A DNA stretch of 64,000 nt from a virus: IMG/VR virus record IMGVR_UViG_3300022701_000122, positions 96,001 through 160,000 of that record. One strand, written 5' to 3'. Under the pieces are notes generated by a model, which saw only the letters and a list, made by a program, of their open reading frames with translations, ran no database searches and was not told the origin of the DNA. Numbering within the stretch: the first letter of the stretch is position 1; every line of letters begins with the position of its first letter. The position numbers and the translations under genes were made by a program. Below, one piece after another: positions 8,059 to 56,482 of the stretch.

Positions 8059-8089
8059 ATAGTTGAGTTATATAAAGAGGAATTAAAAT

Positions 8090-9947: not shown

Positions 9948-9970
9948 AATAAATAATCGAATTCAAGATT

Positions 9971-10008
9971 TTAAGATTGCTGGATTATTATTCAGCAATC
10001 TTAATTTC
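9971..10008 (+). terminator. Probable intrinsic terminator
   Basis: ttaagattgctgga / ttcagcaatcttaa stem, then ttt. Confidence 0.65.
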
Positions 10009-22813: not shown

Positions 22814-22863
22814 ATGAATGGGCATGAATTCTTAAGTTAATTCATGCCCATTTATTTTTTTTT
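22812..22863 (+). terminator. Intrinsic terminator
   Basis: atgggcatgaatt / aattcatgcccat perfect stem, then a long T tract. Confidence 0.9.
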
Positions 22864-22883: not shown

Positions 22884-22898
22884 GGACAAACTGTAAAT
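22884..22898 (+). promoter_or_regulatory. Putative promoter motif A
   Basis: ggacaaactgtaaat after the terminator. Confidence 0.5.
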
Positions 22899-24276: not shown

Positions 24277-24957
24277 ATGTATATATCAGAACAGTATTTA
24301 AATGAATTATCTTATTTCGTAACGCCATACGTTAAAAAATTAATAAATAATATCCCAACTGTTACTAAAAAAGATTTCATTGGCAATGTTGAGCCAGGAG
24401 ATATTGTTCTTGGATTTTCGCCAAGAGAACTGAAAACGGTAAGAACATCTAAGATAATTGCATCTGTTCAACGATCACCATATACTACTTCAAAAATTGT
24501 TGCTGATAATAAGACTATTATTGGATATGGAGTTAAGGCAGTCAATACAGTTGATGAAAATTTTCTTAGAACATATCAATTAAGAAATTTATTAATTGAA
24601 CGACATGAATTATGTTTAATTAGAATAAATGATGCTACACTTACACAAAAAAGAAAAGCTATAGATTTTTGTTTAAATAGACTTGGACTTGAATATAATT
24701 CTTCTGATTTATTGAAAACTATATGGAATGTTTTTACACGAAAGAAACTATTTCCATTTTTTAGAAATGAACCATTGGAGAAAAAAGAAGTAGATAATTT
24801 ACAAAGACCACTTTTTTGTTCTTCTATTATTGCATTGGGTTATTGGTATGCCGGATATAAACATAAATTTAATGGTAAGAGTCCATACGAACTTTGGCCT
24901 ATTGATTTTTTAATTGATGATAATACAACTGGTGTTTGTAGAGTGGAGCAATTATAA
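24277..24957 (+). CDS. Permuted papain-like (YiiX/YaeF-type) protein with the MYISEQYLNE leader
   Basis: PGDIVL, G.EYN, FCSSII, PYELWP; the expected catalytic His position reads SPYTT. Confidence 0.65.
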   Translation: MYISEQYLNELSYFVTPYVKKLINNIPTVTKKDFIGNVEPGDIVLGFSPRELKTVRTSKIIASVQRSPYTTSKIVADNKTIIGYGVKAVNTVDENFLRTYQLRNLLIERHELCLIRINDATLTQKRKAIDFCLNRLGLEYNSSDLLKTIWNVFTRKKLFPFFRNEPLEKKEVDNLQRPLFCSSIIALGYWYAGYKHKFNGKSPYELWPIDFLIDDNTTGVCRVEQL

Positions 24958-24976
24958 AAAATAAAGGATAATCGTA

Positions 24977-25264
24977 ATGATGGATTTTTTTAAAGAACGT
25001 CACATTTATGATAAGTTAGTAGATGATAACGTATTAGTATGGGAAAGTCATGAAGATGATGTAGATTATTTTGTAAAATGGACGAGAGTAAGTGATAATG
25101 AACACAGAATAAGAGAACATGTGCCAGTTAATAGATGTAATACATTTGGTCAATCAAGATTAAGTTTAAATTTTTTAAAAAAAGGAAAATATCAAATAGA
25201 TATAACTGCATATAGTGAAAAAGGTCTTCAGAGTGATAAGTCATCTATTTTATTGTCAATATAA
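24977..25264 (+). CDS. Fibronectin type III-like protein
   Basis: LVWE...Y.V.W...GKYQIDITAYSEKGLQSDKS. Confidence 0.55.
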   Translation: MMDFFKERHIYDKLVDDNVLVWESHEDDVDYFVKWTRVSDNEHRIREHVPVNRCNTFGQSRLSLNFLKKGKYQIDITAYSEKGLQSDKSSILLSI

Positions 25265-25323
25265 CAAACATTTTTATTAGTTAATGTCAATAGTATAAAC
25301 ACTGGTAAGAAAGGATTAAAGAA

Positions 25324-25728
25324 ATGAAGAAATTAAATTTTACATTAATTTTATTGCCGATTATTGTTGTTTGTTTTATGGTTTCCCCATTATTTGCTGC
25401 AACTGTAACATTAACATGGAATCAACCAAATGAATCGGAAGAAAATATTACGGAATGGGAAGTGTTTTGGGGATACGAGGGTAGAGGTGGAAACGGTGAA
25501 GAGTTTGTATACCAATTTAATCCAACCACAAATTCAGAATTACTTGTGACTGAGAAAACATGCGTTATAGAAAATGTAGATAATGGAAAACAGACATTTT
25601 ATGCAGTTAGAGCCAAATCTGGAGAAGTAAGAAGTTTTTATTCAGAAGAAGTATCAACTACTATTCCATTATCAAGTCCATCTGGAATTCAGATTAATAT
25701 ATCGATAACGATTACAACAAATCCATAA
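25324..25728 (+). CDS. Secreted FN3-like protein with a signal peptide
   Basis: Hydrophobic leader ending PLFA-ATVTLTWN...TFYAVRA...SFYSEEV. Confidence 0.7.
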   Translation: MKKLNFTLILLPIIVVCFMVSPLFAATVTLTWNQPNESEENITEWEVFWGYEGRGGNGEEFVYQFNPTTNSELLVTEKTCVIENVDNGKQTFYAVRAKSGEVRSFYSEEVSTTIPLSSPSGIQINISITITTNP

Positions 25729-25769
25729 ATAATTAATAGTAATTATATAATAAATAAAATGGGTGATTT

Positions 25770-26273
25770 ATGTTTTTATCAGAAGAATGCATCAATGAAA
25801 AAATAAATTTAAGTGAAGGAAAATTTTGGGAATGGTTAAAGAAAGTATTCTATGATCATAATCCAAGACATCCACGAATGGTAGAATTAAATCAAGATTA
25901 TTATGAATATATTTGGCATTGTAAAAGAGATCATCGAGATACAACGATGAAAGCAAATATTCCAATTGGTAATGATACTGAAATAAAAATGGATTACGAT
26001 GAAGAAAATATTCAAAAGACTGCATGTGTTCTTGAAGCACGTATTGAATATTTAGAAGGAATAATAGCTGTTATAGAGGAGGAAGGTATAGAGGAAGTTT
26101 GTCAATATAATAAATATAAATCGGAATGTCACAATGTATCACGTAATCTTCTTAGAGCATCAAAAATACGATTAAAACATGATAAAAAATATCTGCAAGG
26201 AATAAAATCTGGAAGGGTAAAACCAAGACGAGATTTTAAAGCAGAATTAGATAATGCCAAATATATAATTTAA
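25770..26273 (+). CDS. Hypothetical protein with a leader (MFLSEECINE...LSE)
   Basis: Shared N-terminal leader, partly duplicated. Confidence 0.7.
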   Translation: MFLSEECINEKINLSEGKFWEWLKKVFYDHNPRHPRMVELNQDYYEYIWHCKRDHRDTTMKANIPIGNDTEIKMDYDEENIQKTACVLEARIEYLEGIIAVIEEEGIEEVCQYNKYKSECHNVSRNLLRASKIRLKHDKKYLQGIKSGRVKPRRDFKAELDNAKYII

Positions 26274-26290
26274 AATGAGAATAATAAAAA

Positions 26291-26656
26291 ATGTTTATAT
26301 CAGAACAATACTTAACTGAAATGTCTGTTACTGTAAAATATAAACGAAAATTATTTGATGCTATTGTTTGCCCAAATAGTGGCTTATATTTTTTAGCTGA
26401 TTTTAATGATTGGTCTATAGAATGGGCTGAATATGTTGCTCTTGAAGAAGATATAGATAAAATAACTGAAGATCATTGGAAAGTAATTCATTTTATTCGA
26501 AGTTATTACTCTAAATATAATAGACCACCACGTTTAAGAACAATATTTCGTAAAACTGGATTTAAGTTAATGCATATTTATGAACTATTCCCAAATGGTC
26601 CTGGTCGTGGTGCTGGACGAATGGCTGGACTCCCATATAAACAACTTCCGATATAA
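26291..26656 (+). CDS. dsrC: DsrC/TusE-like protein lacking both conserved C-terminal cysteines, with a leader
   Basis: DW..EWAEYVA.EE.I..ITEDHWKVIHFIR.YY...TGFKL..IYELFP.GPG.GA..MAGLP; the tail reads GAGRMAGLPYKQLPI instead of GACKMAGLPKPTGCV. Confidence 0.88.
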   Translation: MFISEQYLTEMSVTVKYKRKLFDAIVCPNSGLYFLADFNDWSIEWAEYVALEEDIDKITEDHWKVIHFIRSYYSKYNRPPRLRTIFRKTGFKLMHIYELFPNGPGRGAGRMAGLPYKQLPI

Positions 26657-26682
26657 TACATAAATAAAAGTTCAGATAATTT

Positions 26683-26725
26683 AATAAAGCGTATCTATTT
26701 TATAATAGATACGCTTTATTTTTTT
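26683..26725 (+). terminator. Intrinsic terminator
   Basis: aataaagcgtatctatt / aatagatacgctttatt perfect stem, then Ts. Confidence 0.9.
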
Positions 26726-26747
26726 AATAAAATTAAGGAAATATGAA

Positions 26748-26762
26748 GGACAAACTACAAAT
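26748..26762 (+). promoter_or_regulatory. Putative promoter motif A
   Basis: ggacaaactacaaat after the terminator. Confidence 0.5.
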
Positions 26763-26831
26763 GAATATATTAATATAATCTAAATAAAATAAGATAATAA
26801 TATATATAGTTACAACAACGCTATTTAAACA

Positions 26832-29615
26832 ATGAGAGGTCTAAATATGGCGGTTGAGAAAATAACAACGGAAGAAGCAAGAAACATATTGTTAATGATG
26901 AGTCAAGGGTATAAAGTTCCAAAAATTGTAAAAGATGTAATATTTAAAGTTGCTAAGACGGAGATAGAAGATAAAGGGAGAGTCGTAATTATAAAACGCG
27001 ACCCAAATGTGGGATCACGTCGTATGCAGGGTATGTATGCTAAAATAGTTGATGGTAGTACTATGGAAATACATCCTGCTATCGTCGGTGGGTTTGGCGC
27101 AGATTTTGATGGTGACACCGTTAGGTGCAGACTTCGATGCACTTGTAAATTTGAGAAAAACGAAACAGGACATACTGTGAATCACGAATGTCATATAGGA
27201 GAAATTTTATCTGTTACTAATGCATTTGAGTTTTACAGTAAAGAAGAAAAAAGAAATGGTATATTGGTATCGAAATATAAGCCTAAAAAAGGTTATACTG
27301 TAAAAATAAAAGCCATTGATATTGAAACTGGCAATGTTGAGATGAAAAATGTTTCTGAATATTCTATCCACGAATTTATAAAATTATACAAGATAGAAGA
27401 TACAAAAGATAGATTTGAAACGATTCATGCTTCTTCAGATCATTCATTAATCGTTTATGACGATAATGATAAACAGATTAAGAAAATTTCTCCTATAGAC
27501 TTGTTGGAAAATCTTAATAATAGATATTTAATCAAAGAAAATAATAATACTAAATCAAATCATTTAAATGATATATCTATACAAAAACTGCAAGAAATGG
27601 GATTAGAATTAATACCAGTTTCAGAAGTTAATATAGAGTATGATCCAGATGAAACAACTGGATATGATTTAACAGTAGATGATTTCTATACATTTGCAAC
27701 TCATGATGGTTTATTTATTCAAGATACAATGGCTGTTTATCATCCAATTTCAAATGAAGCCCAAAAAGAAGTCAAAGATAAAATGATTTCTACATATGGT
27801 ATAGAAGGATTAAATAAACCAAATTTTGAGTTATCAAAAGAAATGTTGACTGGTATTTTCACTCTTACATATGATGAGAATAAAAAATCTCAAATCAAAA
27901 CTATAAAAAAAGCAGATGAAGCGAATACGTTACCCATTGATCAACGTGTTAAATTCAATGATATAGAAACAACTGCTGGTAGAGTTGTATTTAATAGTAA
28001 TTTACCAAAATATATTCCATTTGTTAATGAACCAATTGATAAAAAGAAATTAAATGGAATACTTGCAGGTATATTAGAAAAAAGTATTCAAGACAATGCC
28101 ACTACAATTGATAAATTAATGAGAATTGGATTTTTTTATGCTACTGTATACCCAAAAACTATGTCTATCGATATGATGAAATTAAATCCAAAACTTATTA
28201 AACTTAAACAAAAATTAGCCAATGAAGAAGATATTGCCAGACAAATGGATATTCAGAATGAAATGGAATCTGAAATGTTGAAATATCTTGAAAAAAATCA
28301 TAGCGATATTTTTTATATGGTTAAAAGTGGTGGAGCTAAAGGGAGTAATCAGATACGTCAATTAATGGTTGCGAAGGGATTAACATCAGACCCAATGGGA
28401 AATGTTATACCAGCAATTTCTACCAGTATTTCTGATGGTTATTCTCCAGAAGAATATTTTAAAGTGTCTGCTGCTGGAAGGAAGGGTATAATTGATAGAG
28501 CATTAAACACCGCTAACGGTGGATATGCTTATAGAAAATTTATCTTCTTAATGGCGAATGTTGAAGCAGATATAAATATTGGTGATTGTGATACTCCAAG
28601 AACATTAGATATCAAACTAACTAATGAATTGATGAAAAGAATGCCTGGAAGATATGTATATAATAATAGTAATAAGATAATTCCCATTAATGAAAAAATG
28701 ATTGGAAATGTTATAAAATTAAGATCTCCAATATTCTGTAGATCACAAAAGATTTGTAGAATTTGTTATGGTGATTTATTGAAACAATTGAAGAGTAAAA
28801 ATGTAGGTATTCTGGCTAGTATGACCTGCACCAGCCTTTCAGAGCGCATAATGAAAGCATTTCATCTTGGTGGTGCTGTTATATTAAATAGAGTTGATAT
28901 TATAAATGAAATTATGGATAATTTAAATGATGATATGTTGCAAAAAGTTAAATCATTAGTTCATCAGAAGGAAGATGACTTATTCAATGATTCTGAATTT
29001 GCAACTATAAGAATAGATAAAAATATATATAATTCAACTATACCATCAAATAGAATAGTCGAAGAACATGGTTTTATAAAATTAGTAGTTGGTCATTTTA
29101 CATTATCTTTAGATGGGTTTGAAATAAATGTTGAAATAGAACAACCAGTTAAAATATATATTCCAGAAGAACGAGAAGATAATGATAATATAATATCTTG
29201 TATGTACGCAAAAGGAGATAAATTATTTAGAATTGAATCAATAAGAGAAGATTTTTCAAAATTGGCTCAGAATCTTGATGGGTTGGTTGCTGGAAAGTCT
29301 CCGTGGTCAAGTATTCCCGGTATATATAAGAAATTTTATAAACAGTTAAGTGTTGTTGGATCATGGGATTCAGTTCATTTAGAAACTATTATTTCAAATG
29401 TATTGAGAGCAAAGCGTAATCCACAAAAACCAGCAAGATTGGTTGAACCATTTGATCCAGATTTTTATTCAATTAAGAGATTGCCAGGAATGATGTCATG
29501 GCCCCTTGGCGTAGCCCTCGAAAATTTTTCTGTGGGGTTGCAAAGTGGGCTATGTGAGGATCGTGCTCCATCATCTCAAATTGAAAAAGTATTATTTGGA
29601 GAACCATTGTATTAA
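26832..29615 (+). CDS. rpoC: Phage RNA polymerase beta' subunit, C-terminal (catalytic) part, intein-containing
   Basis: KRDP, GADFDGD|TMAV, TTAGRV, SGGAKGS, GRKGIIDRALNTANGGYAYRK, DCDT, CRS..ICRICYG, NVGILAS, VHLE. The probable start is 26847. Confidence 0.93.
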   Translation: MRGLNMAVEKITTEEARNILLMMSQGYKVPKIVKDVIFKVAKTEIEDKGRVVIIKRDPNVGSRRMQGMYAKIVDGSTMEIHPAIVGGFGADFDGDTVRCRLRCTCKFEKNETGHTVNHECHIGEILSVTNAFEFYSKEEKRNGILVSKYKPKKGYTVKIKAIDIETGNVEMKNVSEYSIHEFIKLYKIEDTKDRFETIHASSDHSLIVYDDNDKQIKKISPIDLLENLNNRYLIKENNNTKSNHLNDISIQKLQEMGLELIPVSEVNIEYDPDETTGYDLTVDDFYTFATHDGLFIQDTMAVYHPISNEAQKEVKDKMISTYGIEGLNKPNFELSKEMLTGIFTLTYDENKKSQIKTIKKADEANTLPIDQRVKFNDIETTAGRVVFNSNLPKYIPFVNEPIDKKKLNGILAGILEKSIQDNATTIDKLMRIGFFYATVYPKTMSIDMMKLNPKLIKLKQKLANEEDIARQMDIQNEMESEMLKYLEKNHSDIFYMVKSGGAKGSNQIRQLMVAKGLTSDPMGNVIPAISTSISDGYSPEEYFKVSAAGRKGIIDRALNTANGGYAYRKFIFLMANVEADINIGDCDTPRTLDIKLTNELMKRMPGRYVYNNSNKIIPINEKMIGNVIKLRSPIFCRSQKICRICYGDLLKQLKSKNVGILASMTCTSLSERIMKAFHLGGAVILNRVDIINEIMDNLNDDMLQKVKSLVHQKEDDLFNDSEFATIRIDKNIYNSTIPSNRIVEEHGFIKLVVGHFTLSLDGFEINVEIEQPVKIYIPEEREDNDNIISCMYAKGDKLFRIESIREDFSKLAQNLDGLVAGKSPWSSIPGIYKKFYKQLSVVGSWDSVHLETIISNVLRAKRNPQKPARLVEPFDPDFYSIKRLPGMMSWPLGVALENFSVGLQSGLCEDRAPSSQIEKVLFGEPLY
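27117..27725 (+). mobile_element. Atypical mini-intein (203 aa; Thr1...Gln-Asp, Thr+1) immediately after DFDGD
   Basis: Insert TVRCR...HASSDHSL...GYDLTVDDFYTFATHDGLFIQD; removal restores ADFDGDTMAV. Confidence 0.85.
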
Positions 29616-29622
29616 AAATTAC

Positions 29623-29636
29623 CATATATATTAAAT
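29623..29636 (+). promoter_or_regulatory. Putative promoter motif B
   Basis: catatatattaaat between rpoC-C and the nuclease gene. Confidence 0.45.
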
Positions 29637-29696
29637 AATAAAGAGATGTTCTCATCATTATTTTTTCATTGTTTAATATATAAGGAGAGTTATATT

Positions 29697-31988
29697 ATGA
29701 CTGTAAAATGTGAAATTTGTGGAAGAGAATTTGAAAAAGTATTGGGTTTATCGAGACATATTGCTCATGCTATTAAAAATGATAATGTACGACATAATGG
29801 GATAACTGTAAGAGAATATTATGATAAATATATAAAAATTGATGAGAATGAAGGGATATGTCCAACTTGTGGATCAGAAACAGATTTTAAATCTATGGGG
29901 CGAGGTTATTCTAAATATTGTCCAAATAGAAAATGTTTAAGAATGAGTAAAGAAACTATAAATAAAAGAAAACAAACTAATTTAGAAAAATATGGTGTTG
30001 AAAACCCATTATCAAATAAAGAAGTTCAAGAAAAACGAAAACAAACATTTATTAAAAATTATGGAGTAGATAACCCATTAAAAAATAAAGATATTCAAAA
30101 AAAAGTAAAAAGGACTTGTTTAGAAAAATATGGTGTTGAAAACCCATTATCAAATAAAGAAGTTCAAGAAAAACGAAAACAAACAATGGTTAGACGATAT
30201 GGTGTTGAAATATCGATTCAAAATAAAGAAATAAAAGATAAAATAAAGAAAACTAATATAGAGCGATATGGTGTAGATAATCCTGGAAAGTCTAAACAAG
30301 TTCAAGAAAAAATGAAGAAGACTAATATAGAACGACATGGTGTAGAAAATGTGTTTATGATAGATTCTTTTCAAGAAAAAAGAAAGAAATCAATGATTAA
30401 AAAATATGGTGCAGAATATCCAATTCAAAATAAAGAAATAAAAAATAAAATAAAGAAAACTAATATAGATCGATATGGTGTAGAAAACCCATTACAAAAT
30501 AAAGAAATAAAAGATAAAATAAAGAAAACTAATTTAGAACGGTATGGTACTGAATTTGGTCTTTCTTCAGAAGAAGTAAGAAAAAAAATTGAACAAACAA
30601 ATACGGATAGATATGGTGTTAAGTCAACTCTTTCAGTTCCAGAAGTTCAAGAAAAAATAAGACAGACTAATATTAAAAGATATGGTGTAGAATATCCGAT
30701 TCAGAATAAAGAAATAAAAGATAAAATAAAGAAAACTAATTTAGAGCGATATGGTGTAGATAATGTGTTTATGTCTGACAAAATAAAGAAGCGAATTAAA
30801 GAAATTAATTTAGAACGATATGGTATAGAATATCCAGCTAAAAACAAAGAAATTTATGATAAAGTTAGAAAAACAAATATGAAGAGATATGGAGTAAGAA
30901 ACTATTCACAATCAAACGAATATAAAGAAAAAATTCAAAAATATTGGTTTAACAGATTAATGAGTAATAAAACTATATTATCCAAAGTTGAACCATTATT
31001 TACTATAGATGATTTTGATGGTTTTTCAGATGGTCAAGAGTACACATTTAAATGTAAAAAATGTGATTCTATTTTTAATGGTAGAATAACAAATGGGTTA
31101 ATTCCAAGATGTTATACATGTTATCCGTCTCATGGTACATCAATAGGTGAAAGAGAAATATCTGAATTTTGTGAACAATATACAGAAGTTATAAATAATA
31201 GTAGATCTATATTAGAAGATGGAAAAGAAATAGATATATTTTTACCAGAATTTAATATTGGTATAGAATTTGATGGGTTATACTGGCATAGTGAATATAT
31301 TATAAATAAAGATTATCATCTTAATAAAACACTAAATGCTTTAGCTGTTGGGATTAATCTTATTCATATTTTTGAAGATGAGTGGTATTCCAAATCAGAA
31401 ATAATAAAGTCTATGTTGCTTTATAGAATGGGTAAAATAGAAAATAGAATATATGGAAGAAAATGTGAAATAAGAGAAGTATCTAAAAAAGATGAAATAA
31501 CATTTTTAGATAATAATCATATAAGCGGATACGTTGGATCAAAAATAGCTATTGGATTATATTATGAAGATGAACTTATATCAATAATGACATTTGGTAA
31601 ATCAAGATTTAATAAGAAATATAATTATGAACTAATACGATTTTGCAATAAATTATTTACTACTGTTATTGGTGGAGCATCAAAATTATTCAAATATTTT
31701 ATTTCAAATTATTCTATTTATTCTATTATTTCATATTGTAATATGAGATTTTCTACAGATGGCTTTTATTCAAAAATTGGGTTTGATTTAATTGATATTA
31801 GTAGACCAAATTATTTTTACGTTAATAGTAGTAATATACGTGAATCGAGAATTAAATATCAAAAACACAAATTAAAAGATAAATTAGAGACTTTTGATAA
31901 TAAATTAACAGAGTATGAGAATATGCAATTAAATGGATATTATAGAATTTATGATTGTGGAAATTTAGTTTATACATGGGAGAAGTGA
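29697..31988 (+). CDS. Free-standing Hef-like PD-(D/E)XK endonuclease: Zn-finger module, 14 x 23-aa repeats, Zn ribbon, nuclease, GNAT-like tail
   Basis: CEIC..H..H/CPTC module; KKTNLERYGVENP repeats; EIDIFLPEFNIGIEFDGLYWH; LIHIFEDEW. The ATG at 29697 has an aaggag RBS (track start 29646). Confidence 0.8.
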   Translation: MTVKCEICGREFEKVLGLSRHIAHAIKNDNVRHNGITVREYYDKYIKIDENEGICPTCGSETDFKSMGRGYSKYCPNRKCLRMSKETINKRKQTNLEKYGVENPLSNKEVQEKRKQTFIKNYGVDNPLKNKDIQKKVKRTCLEKYGVENPLSNKEVQEKRKQTMVRRYGVEISIQNKEIKDKIKKTNIERYGVDNPGKSKQVQEKMKKTNIERHGVENVFMIDSFQEKRKKSMIKKYGAEYPIQNKEIKNKIKKTNIDRYGVENPLQNKEIKDKIKKTNLERYGTEFGLSSEEVRKKIEQTNTDRYGVKSTLSVPEVQEKIRQTNIKRYGVEYPIQNKEIKDKIKKTNLERYGVDNVFMSDKIKKRIKEINLERYGIEYPAKNKEIYDKVRKTNMKRYGVRNYSQSNEYKEKIQKYWFNRLMSNKTILSKVEPLFTIDDFDGFSDGQEYTFKCKKCDSIFNGRITNGLIPRCYTCYPSHGTSIGEREISEFCEQYTEVINNSRSILEDGKEIDIFLPEFNIGIEFDGLYWHSEYIINKDYHLNKTLNALAVGINLIHIFEDEWYSKSEIIKSMLLYRMGKIENRIYGRKCEIREVSKKDEITFLDNNHISGYVGSKIAIGLYYEDELISIMTFGKSRFNKKYNYELIRFCNKLFTTVIGGASKLFKYFISNYSIYSIISYCNMRFSTDGFYSKIGFDLIDISRPNYFYVNSSNIRESRIKYQKHKLKDKLETFDNKLTEYENMQLNGYYRIYDCGNLVYTWEK
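29961..30926 (+). repeat. 14 tandem 69-nt (23-aa) coding repeats
   Basis: Consensus xKxKxTNxERYGVxNxxQNKEIK; two units share an exact stretch of about 66 nt (near 29981 and 30120). Confidence 0.92.
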
Positions 31989-31993
31989 TTTAA

Positions 31994-32149
31994 ATGGAAA
32001 ACGTAAATAAATATTTACTCGAAGATAAAAATAAAGATGAAAAGGATATAAGATATATAGTTAAAGAAATGATTCTTCTTAATTATAGAATGTCTGTATC
32101 ATTTATGAATTTTCAACTTAAGCAACTTAAATTATTTTTTAATAAATAA
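31994..32149 (+). CDS. Small hypothetical protein (51 aa, not in track)
   Basis: MENVNKYLLEDK...FNK* fills the gap between neighbouring genes. Confidence 0.4.
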   Translation: MENVNKYLLEDKNKDEKDIRYIVKEMILLNYRMSVSFMNFQLKQLKLFFNK

Positions 32150-32166
32150 AAAGGATGTGATTTGCT

Positions 32167-33066
32167 GTGACACAAGGTAGTTATAAGAAACGTAATCCCG
32201 AAGATGTTGTTCATAAATGTAGAGTTTGTGGATATGAAGCAACTAATTGGACTGATTTTAAGAAACATGTAACAAGATGGACAAAATATCATCCAACTCT
32301 TGAAAAATATTATATCCGATATATGAAGAACGATGGAGAAGGAATATGTGCTATTGATGGTTGTAATAATGAAACTGAATTTATAACAATTAATGGTGAT
32401 AAATCATATAAATTATATTGCAATGAACACTTTCCAAAACATGTTCAGATAAGAACTGATGAAGAAATAGAGCATAATAAGAAAGTATGTCAAATATGCG
32501 GAAAGGAAAATATAAAGAAGATTGGTGGTCATACATATCTATGTCATAAAATTACTGCTAAAGAATACTATGATAAATATTTAACGAAGTATGAAGATGA
32601 GAAAATATGTTCAGTATGTGGTCGAGATGTTACTTTTACTGGTAGAGTAACGGCAGGATATTATAGGACATGTACTCATCTTGGAGTATGTGCTAAATTA
32701 GATAAAGAGTACAAAAAGAAACAAAAATCTGTTTCATTAAAAAAATATGGAGTAGATAATCCTGCAAAATCTCCTGTAATAATTGAAAAAATAAAAAGAT
32801 CTACTAAAGAGAATAAGGATAAAGAGTTACGTAGATTAAAACTAAAGCTATCTAAACCAAATATATATGTATTAAATATAAAAGAATTTGCTGATAAACA
32901 TGATATTATAGAATCAAAAAGAAAAAATAGTAAAGAAGAATTAGAATGTATTATTAAAGAAGTTGATGATGATAATTCTGAATTAGAATGTAGTGATTCG
33001 AATGGAATAATTATAAAAAAATCAATAAAAAAAGATAAGACCATCTTCAATTTTGGAAAATTCTAA
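32167..33066 (+). CDS. Protein with two Zn-finger modules and one 23-aa repeat, no nuclease domain
   Basis: CRVC..H..H-YY-CAIDGC and CQIC..H..H-YYDKY-CSVC...GYYRTC; KKYGVDNPAKS; GTG start. Confidence 0.75.
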   Translation: MTQGSYKKRNPEDVVHKCRVCGYEATNWTDFKKHVTRWTKYHPTLEKYYIRYMKNDGEGICAIDGCNNETEFITINGDKSYKLYCNEHFPKHVQIRTDEEIEHNKKVCQICGKENIKKIGGHTYLCHKITAKEYYDKYLTKYEDEKICSVCGRDVTFTGRVTAGYYRTCTHLGVCAKLDKEYKKKQKSVSLKKYGVDNPAKSPVIIEKIKRSTKENKDKELRRLKLKLSKPNIYVLNIKEFADKHDIIESKRKNSKEELECIIKEVDDDNSELECSDSNGIIIKKSIKKDKTIFNFGKF

Positions 33067-33071
33067 CTGTT

Positions 33072-33263
33072 ATGAGAAATAAAGATATAAAGAATCTAAT
33101 AAAAAATAATATTACATGTAATAAATGTATTGGGTGTGGAAAAAAGTTTGTCACATTTGAAGATTATATGGATCATATGGAAAGATTTAAACAACGAGTT
33201 AAATTAATAATAGTTCTTAAAAAAATAATATTGAAAGCGATTGATTCTAATGATGATAACTAA
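33072..33263 (+). CDS. Small Zn-finger-like protein
   Basis: CIGCGKKFVTFEDYMDH. Confidence 0.55.
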   Translation: MRNKDIKNLIKNNITCNKCIGCGKKFVTFEDYMDHMERFKQRVKLIIVLKKIILKAIDSNDDN

Positions 33264-33579
33264 AGAAATTCAATACACTGAAAATGTACCTACATTCAAA
33301 ACTCGACAGTTAACTTTTCCAATATATTTAATATATGATATGACTAATAAAGATAATCCAAATGAACAAGAATGTTGTCTTTATTGGAGAATAGATGAGT
33401 TTTTAAATTGTACTAAAATATATATAAATGATTGTTTTGATAGCAAATCTATTACATTAGAATTTGAGCAAATAGACGGAACAAAATTAATAGAAATGAT
33501 GAATGAATATAATGAAACAAATGAATGTGATTTCAGATCAGCAATATGTGAATTAGAGAATAAGATGTTAAATTTGTGA
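33241..33579 (+). CDS. Hypothetical protein
   Basis: 112-aa ORF. Confidence 0.55.
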   Translation: MILMMITKEIQYTENVPTFKTRQLTFPIYLIYDMTNKDNPNEQECCLYWRIDEFLNCTKIYINDCFDSKSITLEFEQIDGTKLIEMMNEYNETNECDFRSAICELENKMLNL

Positions 33580-33581
33580 AA

Positions 33582-33753
33582 AAAACAAGCATTTACTTAT
33601 TACCCGAATAATTCGGTAAATGCTCTGGCGCACATACTTCACGCCAATTTCTCGTATAGGACCATGTACTCTCTGATATCCATGATCCCATTCGGGTTTA
33701 CGGTCAGGGCACCAATCTTGACAACGGGTGCTTTTATTAACTACATATATGTA
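33582..33753 (-). ncRNA. Unassigned structured RNA, probably on the minus strand
   Basis: Minus-strand hairpins gcacc/ggtgc, ggatcatg/catggtcc, ggcgtg/tgcgcc and agcatttac/gtaaatgct followed by Ts; upstream TATATATAT-N8-TACAT resembles motif B. Confidence 0.5.
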
Positions 33754-33843
33754 TCAGAGCCATATATATAGCACACTATAGAAAGTACAAATTTTCTATA
33801 GTGTTATTACTTAATATATAGTGAATTTATAAGGAGAAATTGT

Positions 33844-34107
33844 ATGAATAAGTTAAAATGTAGAGAGTGTGGAAAAGAGTTTAAAAATGTAGCTGCTACA
33901 AGTAGACATGTAACAAAAGAACATAATATGAAAGTTAAAGATTATTATGATAAATATTTTAAAGAAAATGGAGAAGATAAGTGTAAAAACGATCTTTGTG
34001 TTGGAGGTGGAAAGAACAGTTTTCTATCATTGGGTAGAGGGTACAATAATTGCTGTTGTACTAAGTGTGGATCAATATGGGGATTAAGTCGAAATAAGAA
34101 AGGGTAG
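33844..34107 (+). CDS. Stand-alone Zn-finger module (homologous to the nuclease N-terminus)
   Basis: CREC..H...H-YYDKY-C....C-FLSLGRGY..CC. Confidence 0.8.
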   Translation: MNKLKCRECGKEFKNVAATSRHVTKEHNMKVKDYYDKYFKENGEDKCKNDLCVGGGKNSFLSLGRGYNNCCCTKCGSIWGLSRNKKG

Positions 34108-34111
34108 ATTT

Positions 34112-34366
34112 ATGAATGATAAAACAAAGTGTAAACTATGTGAAAAAAAATTTGTAAATATATCAGAAATCAGTAAGCATATAATAAACGATCATAATAT
34201 TTCAGTTAAAGAATATTATGATCGTTTTTATAAGGAAGATGGAGAAGGAGAGTGTGCAAATATCATATGTGGAAAAGAAACAAGATTTTTGTCATTAGGT
34301 CGTGGATATAATTTATGTTGTAGTACTGGTTGTGGAATGGATTATGGTCGCTGGCAAAAAAACTAA
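34112..34366 (+). CDS. Stand-alone Zn-finger module
   Basis: CKLC..H...H-EYYDRFY-C...IC-ETRFLSLGRGYNLCC. Confidence 0.8.
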   Translation: MNDKTKCKLCEKKFVNISEISKHIINDHNISVKEYYDRFYKEDGEGECANIICGKETRFLSLGRGYNLCCSTGCGMDYGRWQKN

Positions 34367-34390
34367 ACCTTATTGGAGGACAAATTTTAA

Positions 34391-34639
34391 ATGATATGTC
34401 AGATATGCAAAAAGAGATATGATGATTCATATTGGTTTTTATATCATTTAACTAAAGGTTACAATGAGGGTACTCATTGTAGTCATCAAGAATATTATGA
34501 CAGATTCATGGCAATTGATGGGAATGATGTTTATTGCATTCGAAAAGGATGTGATAACTTATGTAAACTAATAGATGCTATATCTGGATATGAAGATTAT
34601 TGTTCAAAAGAATGTGAACAAAAAGATAAAAGGGTGTAA
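34391..34639 (+). CDS. Stand-alone Zn-finger module (divergent)
   Basis: CQIC..H...H-EYYDRF-C..KGC-GYEDYCSKEC. Confidence 0.75.
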   Translation: MICQICKKRYDDSYWFLYHLTKGYNEGTHCSHQEYYDRFMAIDGNDVYCIRKGCDNLCKLIDAISGYEDYCSKECEQKDKRV

Positions 34640-34645
34640 TAAATT

Positions 34646-36610
34646 ATGTATACATACTTGTCAGAAGAATACATTGAAGAATTTACTATGTTTTCTCCAG
34701 AAATAAAAGAAGCTGGTAAATATATTACTGTTTCTAAATTTCCAGTAAACATATTTAAAGCTGATCTAAAAAGGCAATATAATACTATAAAAATTGCCAA
34801 TGTTTTTGATCATGCTTTCTTATTCTTTGGAACTGGTAAATTAAGAATTCATAAATTCTTCTTACCAGAATTTGTATATCTTCTGACAATATTACCACCT
34901 TATCCCATCTATTCAAAAGTAAGAGAACTTATATATAGAGATACATGGATGGCAAATACTGTTAAGAATTTTTCATCCATAATTGATTATTCGGCTATAT
35001 CTAAAATGCTATTTACTCCAATGTCTCATCAGAAGAAGTTTATTGATTTATATCAAGATAGAAAACAAAAATTTCTTCTTAATGGATATATATTGGCATT
35101 TGACATGGGCCTCGGAAAAACTGCCACATCTTTATTTTTAATGGAAGGGTTACATAAAGATGTAGTAATCATCATTGCTCCAAAAAGTACCTTGTTACCC
35201 GTTTGGAGCAATGAGATTGATAATATATTTAAAGATCATAAAGAAAAATGGCTACCATTTGATAGACCAAAACCAGCAGATTTTTTTATTGTTAATTATG
35301 AATCCATAGATAAATTAAAAAATGTTTTACCATATTTAAGAAGAGCAAAAAATGTTGGTATAGTTGTTGATGAATGTCATAATTTCAGAAATGCTAAAAC
35401 AAAGAGAGTTCAAAATCTAAAGAAAATAGCCGATTTAACAAATTGTAAAGATATATTGTTAATGAGTGGTACTCCAATTAAAGCATTGGGAACTGAAATT
35501 ATACCAGTTCTTGAACTCATTGATCCATTTTTCGATGATGAGAGCAAAGTTGTATTCAAAAAAGCTTTTGGTGTAAATGTGCCAGTTGCACTCGATATTG
35601 TTAAGAATAGACTTGGTATAATGATGCATAGGAAGTTGAAGACAGAAGTTCTTAAGCTTCCAAAAAAATTTATAAAAGAAATAAAAATAAAAATAAGTAA
35701 TGGGATGGATTTTACTCTTGTATCTGTTAAGAAACAAGTTATGGATTTTATAGTTGAAAGAAAAGCATATTATGCCAAAAATATGTACAAATATAGAGCA
35801 GATTACAATGAATGTATTGTGTATCTTAGATCACAAATACCATATAATGATCCAGATTTTGTAGAATATAGAAAAATAGTCGATTATCTTACTAAAAAAG
35901 GTTATGATCGACAGAATCAAAAAGTTGTAGAAAAAGTTGCTTGGGCTAATAATTACGAAAAAGAAGTATTACGTCCATTATTAACATCAGAACTAAAAAA
36001 GAAATTTGATAAATCTAAATCTGCTGTAAAATATGTAGATTTGAAGATAATGGGTGAAGTCATAGGTGGATTGTTATCAAGACTTAGAGTAGCGATGTTT
36101 AAAGAGATGATAAATAATAGTCCAACTTGTAAAATAATAAATGATGCTAAGAAAAAAACAGTTATGTTTACAACTTATGTGGACGTTTTAAAAGAAGCAA
36201 ATAGTTATTTAAGAAGAAAATGTAAAAAAGATCCAATATTGATTTATGGAGATACAAGTAAGAATATAAAAACTGAATTAAGAAAATTTAAAGCCGATGA
36301 GACAATTAATCCACTTGTTGCAACAATTCAAACACTTTCAACTGGTGTTACGCTAGTTGAAGCAAATACTGTCATCTTTATAAATAAGCCTTGGAGAGAT
36401 GCAGATATGCAGCAAGCTACAGATCGAATATACCGCATTGGTCAGACGGATGATGTTTACATATATACATATACATTAGATACTGGAAATGAACCAAATC
36501 TTTCAACTCGAATGGATGATATATTAGCATGGTCTAAAGAGATGTTTGAAGGGATAGTTGGTGAAAAGGAAGCCGAACAAGTTATAAAAAGATTAGCTTA
36601 TAGAGGATAG
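34646..36610 (+). CDS. SNF2-family helicase with a leader-like N-terminus (YLSEEYIEE)
   Basis: HQ, AFDMGLGKT, NYE, VDECH, SGTP, STGVTLVEAN, QATDRIYRIGQ. Confidence 0.92.
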   Translation: MYTYLSEEYIEEFTMFSPEIKEAGKYITVSKFPVNIFKADLKRQYNTIKIANVFDHAFLFFGTGKLRIHKFFLPEFVYLLTILPPYPIYSKVRELIYRDTWMANTVKNFSSIIDYSAISKMLFTPMSHQKKFIDLYQDRKQKFLLNGYILAFDMGLGKTATSLFLMEGLHKDVVIIIAPKSTLLPVWSNEIDNIFKDHKEKWLPFDRPKPADFFIVNYESIDKLKNVLPYLRRAKNVGIVVDECHNFRNAKTKRVQNLKKIADLTNCKDILLMSGTPIKALGTEIIPVLELIDPFFDDESKVVFKKAFGVNVPVALDIVKNRLGIMMHRKLKTEVLKLPKKFIKEIKIKISNGMDFTLVSVKKQVMDFIVERKAYYAKNMYKYRADYNECIVYLRSQIPYNDPDFVEYRKIVDYLTKKGYDRQNQKVVEKVAWANNYEKEVLRPLLTSELKKKFDKSKSAVKYVDLKIMGEVIGGLLSRLRVAMFKEMINNSPTCKIINDAKKKTVMFTTYVDVLKEANSYLRRKCKKDPILIYGDTSKNIKTELRKFKADETINPLVATIQTLSTGVTLVEANTVIFINKPWRDADMQQATDRIYRIGQTDDVYIYTYTLDTGNEPNLSTRMDDILAWSKEMFEGIVGEKEAEQVIKRLAYRG

Positions 36611-36614
36611 ATTA

Positions 36615-37217
36615 TTGAAAATAGATGTGAAAGTTATTGGACATCAAAGATGTGGGAATAATTATTTAGCTAATTTAATAAAATTAAATTTTGGAGATGA
36701 TGTAGAAGTACAAAGTGATTTACACGGGATACTTAGCAGAGACAAAGTACAATATTGTGTTTATTATGTATATATTGTTAGAAGAATTGGACCAGTTATG
36801 AAATCTATGTATAAATTAAGAAATAGATTTGGTTTGAACGTTTCTTCTTATAATGAATTTAAAAAAACAAGATACAGAGATATGTGGTCTGAAAATATAA
36901 AATCGAAAAATGTTATAATAGATGGAAATAATAAATCTGATTATGTTAGTGATAGATTTAAGAAAAATAAACATACTCCTATACAATGGTATAACAAACA
37001 TGTATCGGATTGGGTTGATTTAAAAAGTGAATTCAAAAATATATGCATTATTCATTATGAAGATTTAATAATTAATTTTAATGGAACTATGAATAGAATA
37101 TCTGATTTTTTTGGTTTAGGAAAAAGAAAGAGTTTTAAAAATATAGATAAAAAAGTTGGTCCAAGAATAATTGATGATGAAGTAATAAATAAAAAATACA
37201 TAGATAAAATGAGGTAA
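36615..37217 (+). CDS. Sulfotransferase-domain protein 1
   Basis: 5'-PSB-like HQRCGNNYL, 3'-PB-like YIVR....MKSMY, IHYEDL; TTG start. Confidence 0.7.
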   Translation: MKIDVKVIGHQRCGNNYLANLIKLNFGDDVEVQSDLHGILSRDKVQYCVYYVYIVRRIGPVMKSMYKLRNRFGLNVSSYNEFKKTRYRDMWSENIKSKNVIIDGNNKSDYVSDRFKKNKHTPIQWYNKHVSDWVDLKSEFKNICIIHYEDLIINFNGTMNRISDFFGLGKRKSFKNIDKKVGPRIIDDEVINKKYIDKMR

Positions 37218-37221
37218 TTTA

Positions 37222-37842
37222 ATGCGAGAAATTGTAAAAGTATTTGGACATCAGCGAAGTGGAAACCATTATTTGAATCAGTTACTGAAATTAAATTTTG
37301 AAAAATTTATTAATATTAAAATAGAAACAAATCATAAATTACTTAAACCAGAAGATATAGATAAAAATATAAGTTATATTTATATAATTAGAAATAGAGA
37401 AGCTGTTTTGAAATCATTATTCAGAATGAAAGATAGTTATGGATTAGATATTGATAGTTATGAAAATTTTATATCAACAAGATATTGTGATATGTGGTCT
37501 GAAAATATTAAATCAAAAAGTAGAATGATTAGAAGAATTGATTCATCTCTTAATGAAACTGTAGAACATACAAGTGAGTGGTTTAGAAATATAAAACATA
37601 ATCCAATAAAATGGTATAACATTCATTGTAAGCATTGGGTTGATTTAAATCATAAATTTGATAATATTTATATAATCTATTATGAAGAAATTATAAAGCA
37701 TTTTAATGACACACTTGGAAATATAAGAAAATTTTTAGGAATAATTGAGAAAATAAAATTCAAAGATGTAAAGCTTAAAATTGGTCCAAGCAAAATTAAT
37801 GATAATAAAATTCATAATGATTATATCAAAAAGGCATCATAA
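37222..37842 (+). CDS. Sulfotransferase-domain protein 2 (paralog)
   Basis: HQRSGNHYL, YIIRNREAVLKS, IYYEEI; shares RYxDMWSENIKSK with the previous gene. Confidence 0.7.
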   Translation: MREIVKVFGHQRSGNHYLNQLLKLNFEKFINIKIETNHKLLKPEDIDKNISYIYIIRNREAVLKSLFRMKDSYGLDIDSYENFISTRYCDMWSENIKSKSRMIRRIDSSLNETVEHTSEWFRNIKHNPIKWYNIHCKHWVDLNHKFDNIYIIYYEEIIKHFNDTLGNIRKFLGIIEKIKFKDVKLKIGPSKINDNKIHNDYIKKAS

Positions 37843-38372
37843 TGTTTATATCAGAAGAATATATTAAAAACTTTTTTCATTATGAATATTGGCTTTCCAG
37901 AAATTTATGGAATGATAAAGTACATGAAGCCATGAAGACGTTTGGTGTCTTTTTTGATTTAGAAAATAATGATACTAATAAAGAACAAAGAAATATTACA
38001 ATTCCACAAGATAGATGGGAACATTCTAAGTGTAAATTTAGATGTGAAATGTGGGTTGCTGGTGGTGATTGGGAGTATCCAGTTCATTATTTTAGATGTC
38101 AATTAGCAGACGGTTATGCTTATGAATTGCGACAATATGGTGATCCATTTTTTATTTTTATACCAAATAAAGAAGAAGGTAACTCCCATCTTGTTGAAAT
38201 TGATAAGGGTAAAAATAAAGGTGATTTTAGAGCGCCTCATGATGGTGAAAAAGAATATGATCCAAAAGTAGATAAAAATCCAAGTAAACGTAAATGTTGG
38301 GAATCATTAAATAAATATTTGAAAAAATTGGTTGATATGGAAATTGAGAAGAATAAAAAGGGTAAAGAGTGA
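37842..38372 (+). CDS. Hypothetical protein with a leader (MFISEEYI)
   Basis: Shared N-terminal leader. Confidence 0.75.
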   Translation: MFISEEYIKNFFHYEYWLSRNLWNDKVHEAMKTFGVFFDLENNDTNKEQRNITIPQDRWEHSKCKFRCEMWVAGGDWEYPVHYFRCQLADGYAYELRQYGDPFFIFIPNKEEGNSHLVEIDKGKNKGDFRAPHDGEKEYDPKVDKNPSKRKCWESLNKYLKKLVDMEIEKNKKGKE

Positions 38373-38947
38373 TGTTCATATCTGAAGAATATGTTACTAT
38401 ACAAAATAGAAAAGTTTATCATTTAGTTACTGGTAATATTAAAACAATAAAGAAGTATGGATTGTGTTCTCCACGTAGAATGTATGAAGTTGATAAAAAT
38501 TTATTTATGAAAACTTCTTATTCTATTTATCAGAAACGTGCGGCAGATTATAAAAATATTTCTATTAATGACGTAACAGCAGAAGATATATTATATTACT
38601 TAGATAATTCACCTCAACGAGTACCACAATTTAGCTCACGTTCTTTATTTTTTAGTTATTTGCCTCTATCTGAACATCATAATGATTTACAAAAATATTT
38701 TTCAAATGCTATAGAATTAAGCTTACCAATGAAATTTTTAGAAATGTATTATAGCAAACCAGTAATTGTTGGACCAGGACCACCTGCTATTGTTAGCAAT
38801 TGGAATATTATTAAAGATCCCAAGTTTATGGAAACTGTTAAGAAAGCAGCAAGAAGGAAGCCGCATCCAGTACTTAGATTTAAATATATTCCACATTTAG
38901 CAGTTGATGCTTACCATATTCCATTTAATAAATTTGAGGTTATTTAA
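38369..38947 (+). CDS. Leader-bearing protein, possible ADP-ribosyltransferase fold
   Basis: MFISEEYV then VYHLVT..I.TI.KYGL.S, SLFFS, IELSL (an H..T..I...GL pattern of ART-like folds). Confidence 0.5.
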   Translation: MMFISEEYVTIQNRKVYHLVTGNIKTIKKYGLCSPRRMYEVDKNLFMKTSYSIYQKRAADYKNISINDVTAEDILYYLDNSPQRVPQFSSRSLFFSYLPLSEHHNDLQKYFSNAIELSLPMKFLEMYYSKPVIVGPGPPAIVSNWNIIKDPKFMETVKKAARRKPHPVLRFKYIPHLAVDAYHIPFNKFEVI

Positions 38948-39018
38948 TGTATATATCAGAACAATTCATAAATGAAAAATGTAGTAGTACAGATCGAATA
39001 AAAAAACTAAAGTATTAG
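38947..39018 (+). pseudogene. Orphan leader remnant (MYISEQFINEKCSSTDRIKKLKY*)
   Basis: The first 45 nt are nearly identical to the start of 39606; it stops after an A run, and another frame continues briefly. Confidence 0.55.
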
Positions 39019-39075
39019 CAGAAGAAAAATATAAATCAGCTAAAGAATGTATGTTAAAAATGGGGGTTAAAATAA

Positions 39076-39603
39076 ATGTATATATCAGAACAATACTTAA
39101 ATGAATTTTTAAAAGGTAAATATTCATACATACACATTGATCTTATAAAAATATATAATGAATATCTATCAAATATAAGAAATTGTGTTAGATATTATGA
39201 TGAAAATAATCAAGGGGATAATGAATTACATTTTTTTATAATAGAGCACGGTCATATAAGTATACCAGTAACTACTAAAATGGAATATGGTTCATTTGTT
39301 CAAAATTTACCAATTTTTTCTATTCGTAAAAGAGATACTTATAAAGATTCTGGTTTCCATAGTGTTTATTTTGAACATAATATACCGATTACTAAATTCG
39401 CATTATGTACTGCACTCAATGATCAGAAATTATTAATGAATTGTCTTAAATTTATTAATAATACAAATATTGATGAATTATATAATGGTTACTTTTGGGA
39501 TAGAGATTATTGTATTGGTAGTTATGATTATATTAAAAAAGATATTAAATATTCTTTAAATCAATATAAACAAATGATTATAGAATTTAAAAGGAAAATG
39601 TAA
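39076..39603 (+). CDS. Hypothetical protein with a leader (MYISEQYLNE)
   Basis: Shared N-terminal leader. Confidence 0.75.
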   Translation: MYISEQYLNEFLKGKYSYIHIDLIKIYNEYLSNIRNCVRYYDENNQGDNELHFFIIEHGHISIPVTTKMEYGSFVQNLPIFSIRKRDTYKDSGFHSVYFEHNIPITKFALCTALNDQKLLMNCLKFINNTNIDELYNGYFWDRDYCIGSYDYIKKDIKYSLNQYKQMIIEFKRKM

Positions 39604-39605
39604 AT

Positions 39606-40328
39606 ATGTATATATCAAAACAATTCATAAATGAAAAATGTAGTAGTACAATAATGTTTTTATCGGAACAATACTTAACTGAAAAATTAGAAGACATCAG
39701 AGTTGATAAAAAATGGTATGATTTATTTAATACTAAATTGAAAAAAGCTTTATTAAAAGAAACTGAAATGGTATTTCTAAAACATTTTAGATTATCTCAT
39801 CCAATTATTGATTCAAGAAAAACATCTATGATATTTGATCATCAAATACTTGGAGTTAGTATTAGTGTTACTATTGTATTATATGATAAATTTGGAAATC
39901 GTATAATGTATGAAAGTGAAGATTTTCCAGGTCAAGATCAATTTGCTGTGTATTTAAAAAGAAATAAAAAATCTGGAAGATGGAGTATAGAATATTATAA
40001 CTTGAATGTTAAAGAGGAATATAGAAATAAAGGTATAGAACGACAATTGATGCAGTCAGTAAATAAATGTGTAAAAATATTGCAAAATGAACGAACTGTA
40101 ACTCTTGAAACGATGGATGATGAACGATATTTTATCTCAAGAATGCCTGGAGTTCGATTTGCAGATGGAGATCCTTATGGAATAATTGGTGTTCAAAAAG
40201 CTTATAAATATTGGTGCAGGAGGAATAAGATACCATATGAAATTCTTACTTTACCATCAGAATACCCAAGAGATTTTTTAACTTCAAAACATGCACCACC
40301 TTTTATAGAATATGTTATCAATATTTAA
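39606..40328 (+). CDS. GNAT-like protein with a tandem double leader
   Basis: MYISKQFINE-KCSSTI-MFLSEQYLTE; LNVKEEYRNKGIERQLM acetyl-CoA-binding-like motif. Confidence 0.6.
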   Translation: MYISKQFINEKCSSTIMFLSEQYLTEKLEDIRVDKKWYDLFNTKLKKALLKETEMVFLKHFRLSHPIIDSRKTSMIFDHQILGVSISVTIVLYDKFGNRIMYESEDFPGQDQFAVYLKRNKKSGRWSIEYYNLNVKEEYRNKGIERQLMQSVNKCVKILQNERTVTLETMDDERYFISRMPGVRFADGDPYGIIGVQKAYKYWCRRNKIPYEILTLPSEYPRDFLTSKHAPPFIEYVINI

Positions 40329-44545: not shown

Positions 44546-44573
44546 GTAAAATCAATTTTATTTGGAGATCGTT

Positions 44574-56471: not shown

Positions 56472-56482
56472 ATTAAAATCAC

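Follow-up and report, generated by a model that had tools for sequence, protein, structure and literature searches.

A ten-residue N-terminal leader shared by unrelated proteins of an uncultured large phage is probably a T4-type capsid-targeting and cleavage tag

What could make proteins of entirely different kinds begin with the same ten residues? This question is raised by a stretch of 64,000 nucleotides (hereafter the window) that forms bases 96001-160000 of IMG/VR virus record IMGVR_UViG_3300022701_000122 (182,757 bp, 28% G+C; hereafter G000) and whose genes lie nearly all on the plus strand. Two clusters of these genes code for proteins starting with M-[YF]-[ILV]-S-[EK]-[EQ]-[YFC]-[ILV]-x-E. 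We refer to this N-terminus as the leader, to genes and proteins bearing it as tagged, and to the protein part that follows it as cargo. A first-pass annotation of the window had proposed that the leader is analogous to the capsid-targeting sequence (CTS) of phage T4, and that the phage packages and injects the tagged proteins. Comparison of the G000 sequence with related genomes and with T4 leads us to the same reading: the leader is probably a T4-type capsid-targeting and cleavage tag.

The leader was found at each of the starts that the first-pass annotation had listed, 24277 through 39606 (Table 1). At one of them, 38947, the leader stands and the supposed tagged protein does not, for only a stub of 23 codons (38947-39018) is encoded there. 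A motif scan of the whole genome and its relatives added three tagged genes outside the window and retrieved leaders in related genomes. In total, G000 contains 11 tagged open reading frames (ORFs) among approximately 230, together with the stub and one stacked leader copy, and the leader does not match internally in any of these ORFs. When a position matrix was applied to five related genomes, all hits of at least 19.7 bits were located at residue 2-4 of an ORF, the stacked copy excepted, and the best internal hit reached 18.4 bits. Random placement would qualify about 1.6% of positions, whereas 12 of 12 were observed; the N-terminal siting of the leader is thus far beyond chance. Beyond the leader, tagged proteins display no significant mutual similarity, and the claim that one leader is shared by otherwise unrelated proteins therefore holds.

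We wondered how closely the leader resembles the CTS of T4. In this phage, the prohead protease gp21 cleaves after L/I-x-E, the first 10 residues of IPIII suffice for packaging, and residues 4 and 7 of the CTS serve targeting while residues 8 and 10 serve processing (PMC9026906; for the CTS sequence, PMC8442874). Internal proteins of T-even phages are a diverse set with only the CTS in common (PMC3012670). The CTS, carried by IPI, IPII, IPIII and Alt and removed by gp21, is like the leader a tag of about ten N-terminal residues on proteins that are mostly basic and otherwise unrelated. An aromatic residue at position 7 and an aliphatic one at position 8 are common to the two, and Glu at position 10 (L/I-x-E) of the CTS is found in most leaders of G000. 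They differ in the first half (M-K-T-Y-Q in T4 versus M-[YF]-[ILV]-S-E here) and in the number of tagged genes (3-4 in T4 versus 11-13 per genome here). In T4, used as positive control, the IPIII/IPII/IPI group emerges from de novo clustering of N-termini. A matrix built from metagenomic leaders alone ranks IPIII and IPII second and third among 274 T4 N-termini, the full-matrix score being modest (4.7 bits). With the second half of the matrix (E-x-aromatic-aliphatic-x-E), which was picked after the data had been seen, IPIII and IPII occupy the first two places, followed by scaffold gp22 and by a CTS-like small ORF. The best-scoring T4 proteins are thus established components of the prohead core.

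Subsequently, tagged proteins were inspected for cleavage sites. The [LI]-x-E motif is present within residues 6-15 in nine of the 11 tagged G000 proteins, compared with 11% of other ORFs; among tagged proteins of relatives the fractions are 5/9 and 4/9. The only candidate site universal to leaders is [ILV]-S-E at positions 3-5. Further indication comes from the cargo of tagged gene 1, a C92-type cysteine hydrolase. It and its three orthologues have N-terminal extensions of 10, 21, 23 and 29 residues, the latter three differing in sequence, and each extension ends with [LIV]-x-E directly before the conserved domain. Judging from this alignment, the conserved junction is how a processing site would look. 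Tagged proteins are also more basic than the remainder in three genomes (p = 0.007, 5e-5 and 4e-5), and basic character is typical of T4 internal proteins too.

T4 and this phage are alike in possessing a gp21-family protease and a gp23-family capsid protein (PMC9026906, PMC8442874, PMC3012670). The protease gene, which the first-pass annotation had left to be located, was found outside the window (Table 1). Its product matches Pfam Peptidase_S77 with 39-42 bits (cut-off 27) and the PHROG head maturation protease with 6e-30; a phmmer search of this protease against PDB sequences gave no matches. When the G000 protease was aligned with T4 gp21 and six further phage proteases, the motifs G-E-x-x-H-P and S-x-R-G were invariant, and the His and Ser catalytic motifs of T4 gp21 are kept in the G000 protein. 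All aligned proteases themselves carry an N-terminal [LIF]-x-E that aligns with L-I-E-9 of T4, its Glu being invariant. Similarly, L-L-x-E at residues 5-8 of the capsid protein is kept in five of five genomes. The order of genes for portal, acidic protein and protease recalls T4 genes 20, 67-68 and 21. In related genome G002 and in its sibling G004, the operon that codes for the acidic core protein and the protease has two tagged genes between them, whose products are 75 and 82 aa long and have a pI of about 12. These two tiny genes of G002 occupy a position matching that of gp67/gp68 in T4.

N-termini of related appearance were also noticed in other phages. The Gp23 capsid precursor of pelagimyophages starts with M-Y-L-S-E-(Q/T), just as the leader does, and the prohead protease of Pelagibacter phage Mosig starts with M-K-L-I-S-E-E (loci L022:319-1662(-) and, for Mosig, L190 7029-7673 and 9001-10350). 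An N-terminal [LI]-S-E may be a widespread feature of prohead cores, as far as these sequences indicate. A DNA-pattern scan of IMG/VR for the leader revealed no new tagged loci, being swamped by pelagimyophage Gp23 capsid genes with the same heptapeptide start.

The first-pass annotation had pointed out that conservation at the DNA level only would indicate a translation-initiation element and not a peptide tag. This was examined on 30 leaders from three genomes and is not what they display. Serine is encoded by TCA in 19 leaders, TCT in six, AGT in three, and TCG and TCC in one each, and codons for Tyr, Ile, Glu and Gln differ as well. Substitutions are conservative (Y/F, I/L/V, E/Q/K). The leader is retained in orthologues with merely 26-32% cargo identity and among genomes whose capsid proteins are just 64-69% identical. 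Upstream of leaders, the sole common feature is a Shine-Dalgarno-like purine run. Switches between TCN and AGY codons, conservative replacements and the restriction of upstream similarity to the Shine-Dalgarno sequence all indicate that selection acts on the peptide.

Further, we examined distribution of the leader in related genomes. About nine tagged genes are present in each of G002 and G003 and at least three in G004, of which half a genome is available. A search with the N-terminal fragment of RNA polymerase beta' as query yielded just one further related genome. The leader is absent from G005. Instead, the motif [DN]-[DEN]-Y-L-N-x-[IL]-x-E recurs there (loci L178-L189), with four N-terminal matches versus one internal; it is found on 4-5 genes, one of which codes for an 80-aa protein (pI 11.6) beside the portal gene. 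In G006, a third type of N-terminal region, approximately 35 residues long and rich in L-x-E, is shared by five genes at 134-141 kb (loci L253-L265). Tags are interchangeable, since homologous proteins bear the leader in G003 and the recurrent motif in G005. With the leader in some genomes and other N-termini in G005 and G006, the tag itself varies within the lineage and the principle is kept.

How tags reach their cargo can be read from several tagged genes. End-to-end alignment of the tagged gene 3 product with DsrC of Desulfobacterota, which is 105 aa long, gives 45-48% identity. The start Met of bacterial DsrC aligns with Met11, and the leader is therefore an exact 10-residue addition. Both conserved functional cysteines are replaced. 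In BLASTP, this protein is closest to Desulfobacterota DsrC (50-55% identity), which hints, at the level of sequence similarity, that the host may be a sulfate reducer and the protein a decoy. In tagged gene 4 (Pfam SNF2-rel_dom, ResIII and Helicase_C), a Met is retained right after the leader. The Pfam match of tagged gene 1 to C92 is weak. Its Atlas structure matches C92 families with TM 0.71 over residues 18-226, so that the leader lies outside the fold, and the predicted fold of C92 cargo begins at residue 12-18. As for the other labels given to cargo by the first-pass annotation, the SNF2 and DsrC assignments are solid by Pfam and the papain-like one is supported. The GNAT label of tagged gene 8 is weak, acetyltransferase hits in both Pfam and PHROG being below cut-offs, and an ADP-ribosyltransferase-like assignment finds no support in Pfam, PHROG or Atlas. 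Tagged gene 6 gave no usable hit in Atlas.

The second cluster bears traces of recombination. The first 45 nt of the stub are 98% identical with 39606-39650, a duplication best understood as recombination between leaders. In T-even phages, polymorphic loci for internal proteins likewise comprise diverse cargo with only a conserved CTS in common (Repoila et al. 1994, as cited in PMC3012670). Signs of cassette exchange comparable to these loci are the stub, the stacked leader and one slot that holds different cargo in each genome. Unlike in T-even phages, the slots here belong to an RNA polymerase operon, and related genomes differ in their tags as well.

One more family concerns a tagged protein outside the window. 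The G000 gene 7964-9250(-) and its orthologues in G001 and G003 code for proteins of 345-508 aa with conserved N-terminus M-S-F-E-L-[IL] and have a promoter-like box (see below) upstream. The C-terminal part of this family is homologous to the tagged membrane protein encoded at G000 48254-48934.

Table 1. Features of the window and of G000 considered in this work (positions refer to the window unless marked G000)
Feature	Position	Strand	Remarks
Tagged gene 1	24277-24957	+	226 aa; leader (24277-24306) and YiiX/C92-type permuted papain-like cysteine hydrolase
Tagged gene 2	25770-26273	+	leader, 167-aa protein; tagged orthologue in G003 (39122-39592)
Tagged gene 3	26291-26656	+	leader, DsrC/TusE-family protein; Pfam DsrC 7e-24
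Tagged gene 4	34646-36610	+	654 aa; leader at codons 4-12 (three residues ahead), SNF2-family helicase
Tagged gene 5	37842-38372	+	176-aa protein; leader without Glu at position 10
Tagged gene 6	38372-38947	+	191-aa protein; leader without Glu at position 10; start taken as ATG at 38372 (ORF listing began 3 nt earlier, at GTG)
Orphan leader stub	38947-39018	+	leader and 13 codons, then stop
Tagged gene 7	39076-39603	+	leader, 175-aa protein
Tagged gene 8	39606-40328	+	two stacked leaders (39606-39635, Lys at position 5; in-frame second copy 39654-39683), weakly GNAT-like domain
Tagged gene beyond window	G000 7435-7818	-	
Tagged gene beyond window	G000 9338-9994	-	
Tagged gene beyond window	G000 48254-48934	+	
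Prohead protease	G000 33178-33891	-	Peptidase_S77 (gp21-type); outside window
Major capsid protein	G000 24943-26397	-	Pfam Gp23, 2e-30
Portal gene	G000 34462-39207	-	two inteins with HNH
RNA polymerase beta' N-terminal fragment	23331-24257	+	Pfam Rpb1 domains 1-2
RNA polymerase beta' C-terminal fragment	26832-29615	+	Pfam Rpb1 domains 2 and 5; intein-like insert
RNA polymerase beta	40352-44461	+	Pfam Rpb2 domains 3 and 6; tblastn to phage RNA polymerase beta genes; directly after second tagged cluster
Promoter-like boxes	4889, 7464, 22884, 26748, 34378, 43091, 52112	+	
Promoter-like box, first tagged unit	22884-22897	+	just past strong terminator 22812-22857; opens unit 22919 / beta'-N / tagged genes 1-3
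Terminator, then promoter-like box	26683-26720, 26748-26761	+	strong terminator closes first tagged cluster; box ahead of beta'-C
SPASM-like radical-SAM gene	20607-21617		Pfam Radical_SAM
Tandem sulfotransferase-domain paralogues	36615-37217, 37222-37842		42% identical; inside second tagged cluster

Both tagged clusters lie among genes for RNA polymerase subunits, as the first-pass annotation had stated and as Pfam assignment of beta'-N, beta'-C and beta confirms. The beta' subunit is split inside Rpb1 domain 2, and the split site is filled by the first tagged cluster in G000. A leader gene directly follows beta'-N in G000, G003 and, as a weak variant, G001. G002 has a tagged gene immediately ahead of beta'-N, and its split contains a leader-like gene of 146 aa. 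Cargo at the split site is different in each genome, and beta' is unsplit in G005. More complete relatives have two RNA polymerase sets, of which the split-beta' one corresponds to that of the window. The insert of beta'-C matches Intein_splicing below the cut-off.

A box of the form G-G-A-C-A-A-A-Y-N-N-Y-A-A-A connects these genes with the head genes. Seven copies are present in the window versus 0.1 expected, and 22, 27, 39 and 12 copies in four genomes (G000-G003); G005 yielded no copy. Of the boxes, 80-85% are located no more than 120 nt ahead of a start, mostly at a distance of 13-120 nt. The box precedes the capsid-protein operon, the acidic-protein/protease operon, tail genes and, in one RNA polymerase operon, the unit comprising gene 22919, beta'-N and tagged genes 1-3; two tagged genes elsewhere have it upstream as well. 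A sub-class with AGC or ACT in front is located ahead of replication genes. We infer that the box is a late promoter. A scan for sigma-70 promoters revealed no enrichment. Unlike the second set, the RNA polymerase set of the window has the box in common with head genes, and for this reason it may be a virion-packaged polymerase.

Large phages with a virion RNA polymerase are likewise known in phiKZ, 201phi2-1 and SPN3US. Propeptides of their head and ejection proteins, which a protease related to gp21 cleaves after Glu, are believed to direct these proteins into the prohead (PMC5694885, PMC9026906). These propeptides are mostly longer than 100 residues, have no one common sequence and are cut at S/A-x-E, in contrast to the shared decapeptide with [LIV]-x-E described here. 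A phiKZ-type propeptide was consequently ruled out as identity of the leader, which has 10 residues, is common to several proteins and contains [LIV] at P3.

Several lines of evidence thus converge on a T4-type capsid-targeting and cleavage tag: presence of the protease and of the Gp23 capsid protein, conservation of the peptide, recognition of the T4 CTS by the leader matrix, basic cargo, the head-core operon of G002, the [LIV]-x-E junction and the box common with head genes. A number of observations weigh against it. Glu10 is missing from two window leaders and from almost every leader of G002, which makes the exact cut position uncertain, and the near-invariant Ser4 is not accounted for by the T4 rule, where the middle residue is free. 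The more favourable half-matrix was chosen with the data in hand. Some cargo has transmembrane segments. The SNF2 orthologue of G003, 55% identical, bears no leader, although its upstream neighbour is tagged. G001, the closest relative by capsid protein, has only 1-3 weak leader variants. No homologue of a gp22-type scaffold was identified. De novo N-terminal clustering in the cultured distant relatives phiR1-37 and SA1 gave no comparable leader, and their virion proteomes consequently provide no experimental link. The phage is uncultured, with CheckV completeness of the G000 record of about 58%. The last point of this kind is the conserved adjacency of a radical-SAM gene to the tagged operon, which brings up the first alternative.

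According to it, the leader would be a recognition or modification site for a SPASM-like radical-SAM enzyme, resembling the leaders of ribosomally synthesized and post-translationally modified peptides, here placed on whole proteins. In G000, G001, G002 and G003, the enzyme gene is found at a distance of 2-3 genes from a tagged or leader-like one, neither leader nor enzyme is seen in G006 and G009, and Ser4 is almost invariant. Association of the two is nevertheless imperfect: G005 has the enzyme without this leader, G001 has it with nearly no leaders, and G006 has the protease and a different shared N-terminus but no enzyme. Tagged genes occur at scattered places in the genome, one of which is the protease operon of G002. 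The enzyme itself is devoid of an N-terminal peptide-recognition domain, its radical-SAM core beginning at residue 15. Moreover, similarity to the T4 CTS, the cleavage motif, the junction Glu, basic cargo and the head-operon context in G002 are all left unexplained. We consider this alternative improbable. No homologue of the enzyme was found in 50,697 cultured phage records.

The leader might also dock proteins on another phage assembly, namely the split-beta' RNA polymerase, or route them to the membrane or to degradation, instead of being a capsid signal. The location of tagged genes in the beta' split site in four genomes and ahead of beta would fit the former, and transmembrane segments in several cargo proteins the latter. 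On the other hand, many tagged genes lie away from polymerase genes, the RNA polymerase subunits themselves bear no leader, and the leader has no hydrophobic core like that of signal peptides. Since the T4 CTS similarity and the protease-site features remain unexplained as well, there is little probability that the leader acts in this way.

We also considered a nucleic-acid element, acting in translation initiation or in the mRNA, or a recombination module, in which case the peptide would have no role. Leaders do look visibly alike at the DNA level (ATG-TWT-ATA-TCA-GAA), TCA is over-used for Ser (63% in leaders versus approximately 30% genome-wide), and the stub and the stacked copy show that recombination takes place at the leader. 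The codon data presented above largely refute this view: synonymous and conservative changes are common, TCN/AGY switches included, the leader survives the divergence of both capsid proteins and cargo, and upstream conservation does not extend beyond the Shine-Dalgarno sequence. It is thus very unlikely. Finally, tyrosine sulfation of the leader by the two sulfotransferase paralogues encoded within the second tagged cluster (36615-37842), suggested by the resemblance of S-E-E-Y-I-E-E to sulfation sites with their acidic residue-Tyr context, was rejected as next to impossible, because the sulfotransferases are confined to G000 (absent from G001, G002, G003 and G005), all G002 leaders have Phe at position 7 and a leader of the window contains no Tyr at all.

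Some other features of the window were recorded along the way. An ORF for a DUF7487 protein (29646-31988) contains twelve tandem repeats of 69 nt (23 codons) at 29956-30893, and a second DUF7487 ORF is located at 44562-46736. Small ORFs 32167, 33844, 34112 and 34391 have in common a zinc-finger-like N-terminus and a repeated K-E-Y-Y-D-K-Y stretch. Local G+C content rises to 41% at 56001-58000, compared with 28% in the genome, and bases 1-60 of G000 are G+C-rich, too. These patches could be of foreign or chimeric origin.

If the leader is a T4-type capsid-targeting and cleavage tag, the following course of events can be envisaged. Late in infection, tagged proteins would be made alongside head proteins and one of the two phage RNA polymerases. 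The first eight or so residues of the leader, with aromatic residues at positions 2 and 7 and [ILV]-S-E at positions 3-5, would dock the cargo onto the assembling prohead core. The gp21-family protease would then cut after Glu of [LIV]-x-E, at position 10 in most G000 copies and possibly at position 5 too. The cut would release mostly basic cargo within the capsid, from where it would enter the host together with DNA. What the sequences show directly is the tag, its conservation as a peptide, the protease and capsid families, the likeness to the T4 signal and the comparative patterns; docking, cleavage, packaging and injection are deduced. On the evolutionary scale, new cargo would be gained by in-frame fusion of the 10-codon leader ahead of a complete gene and swapped by recombination between leaders.

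The phage differs from T4 in many respects. It has multisubunit RNA polymerases, and its capsid protein is only 22-25% identical to its nearest cultured relatives (SA1, AR9/PBS1, phiR1-37 and T4-like Campylobacter phages). Its cargo, including a 654-aa helicase, a dead DsrC, a cysteine hydrolase and membrane proteins, is unlike that of T4. We wondered if the leader could nevertheless be a true homologue of the T4 CTS, that is, if one ancient address code is read by gp21/gp23-type head cores from T4 to the lineage with multisubunit RNA polymerases. This stronger proposal is put forward tentatively, as a possibility with the odds against it. Should it apply, the injected proteome of uncultured large phages could be read from sequence, comprising in the present case at least 11 proteins and a virion RNA polymerase, and the dead DsrC, derived from sulfate-reducing bacteria, could jam host sulfite respiration at infection.

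The principle of a packaging tag is known from T4; the lineage and the unusually large, enzymatic cargo set are new, and our search of open literature found no such tag described for phages of this kind. It can be seen from the results how cargo is acquired, by exact in-frame fusion before an intact gene, and how it is exchanged, by recombination at the tag. If the 10-residue tag works as in T4, it could also provide engineered phage capsids with a second, orthogonal handle for packaging, and the proteins that are injected before genes are expressed can be listed for an uncultured lineage from its sequence alone. Such proteins would represent the first wave of host takeover and counter-defence, and the SNF2 helicase, the cysteine hydrolase, the dead DsrC, the membrane proteins and several proteins of unknown function are candidates for new anti-defence or host-reprogramming functions.

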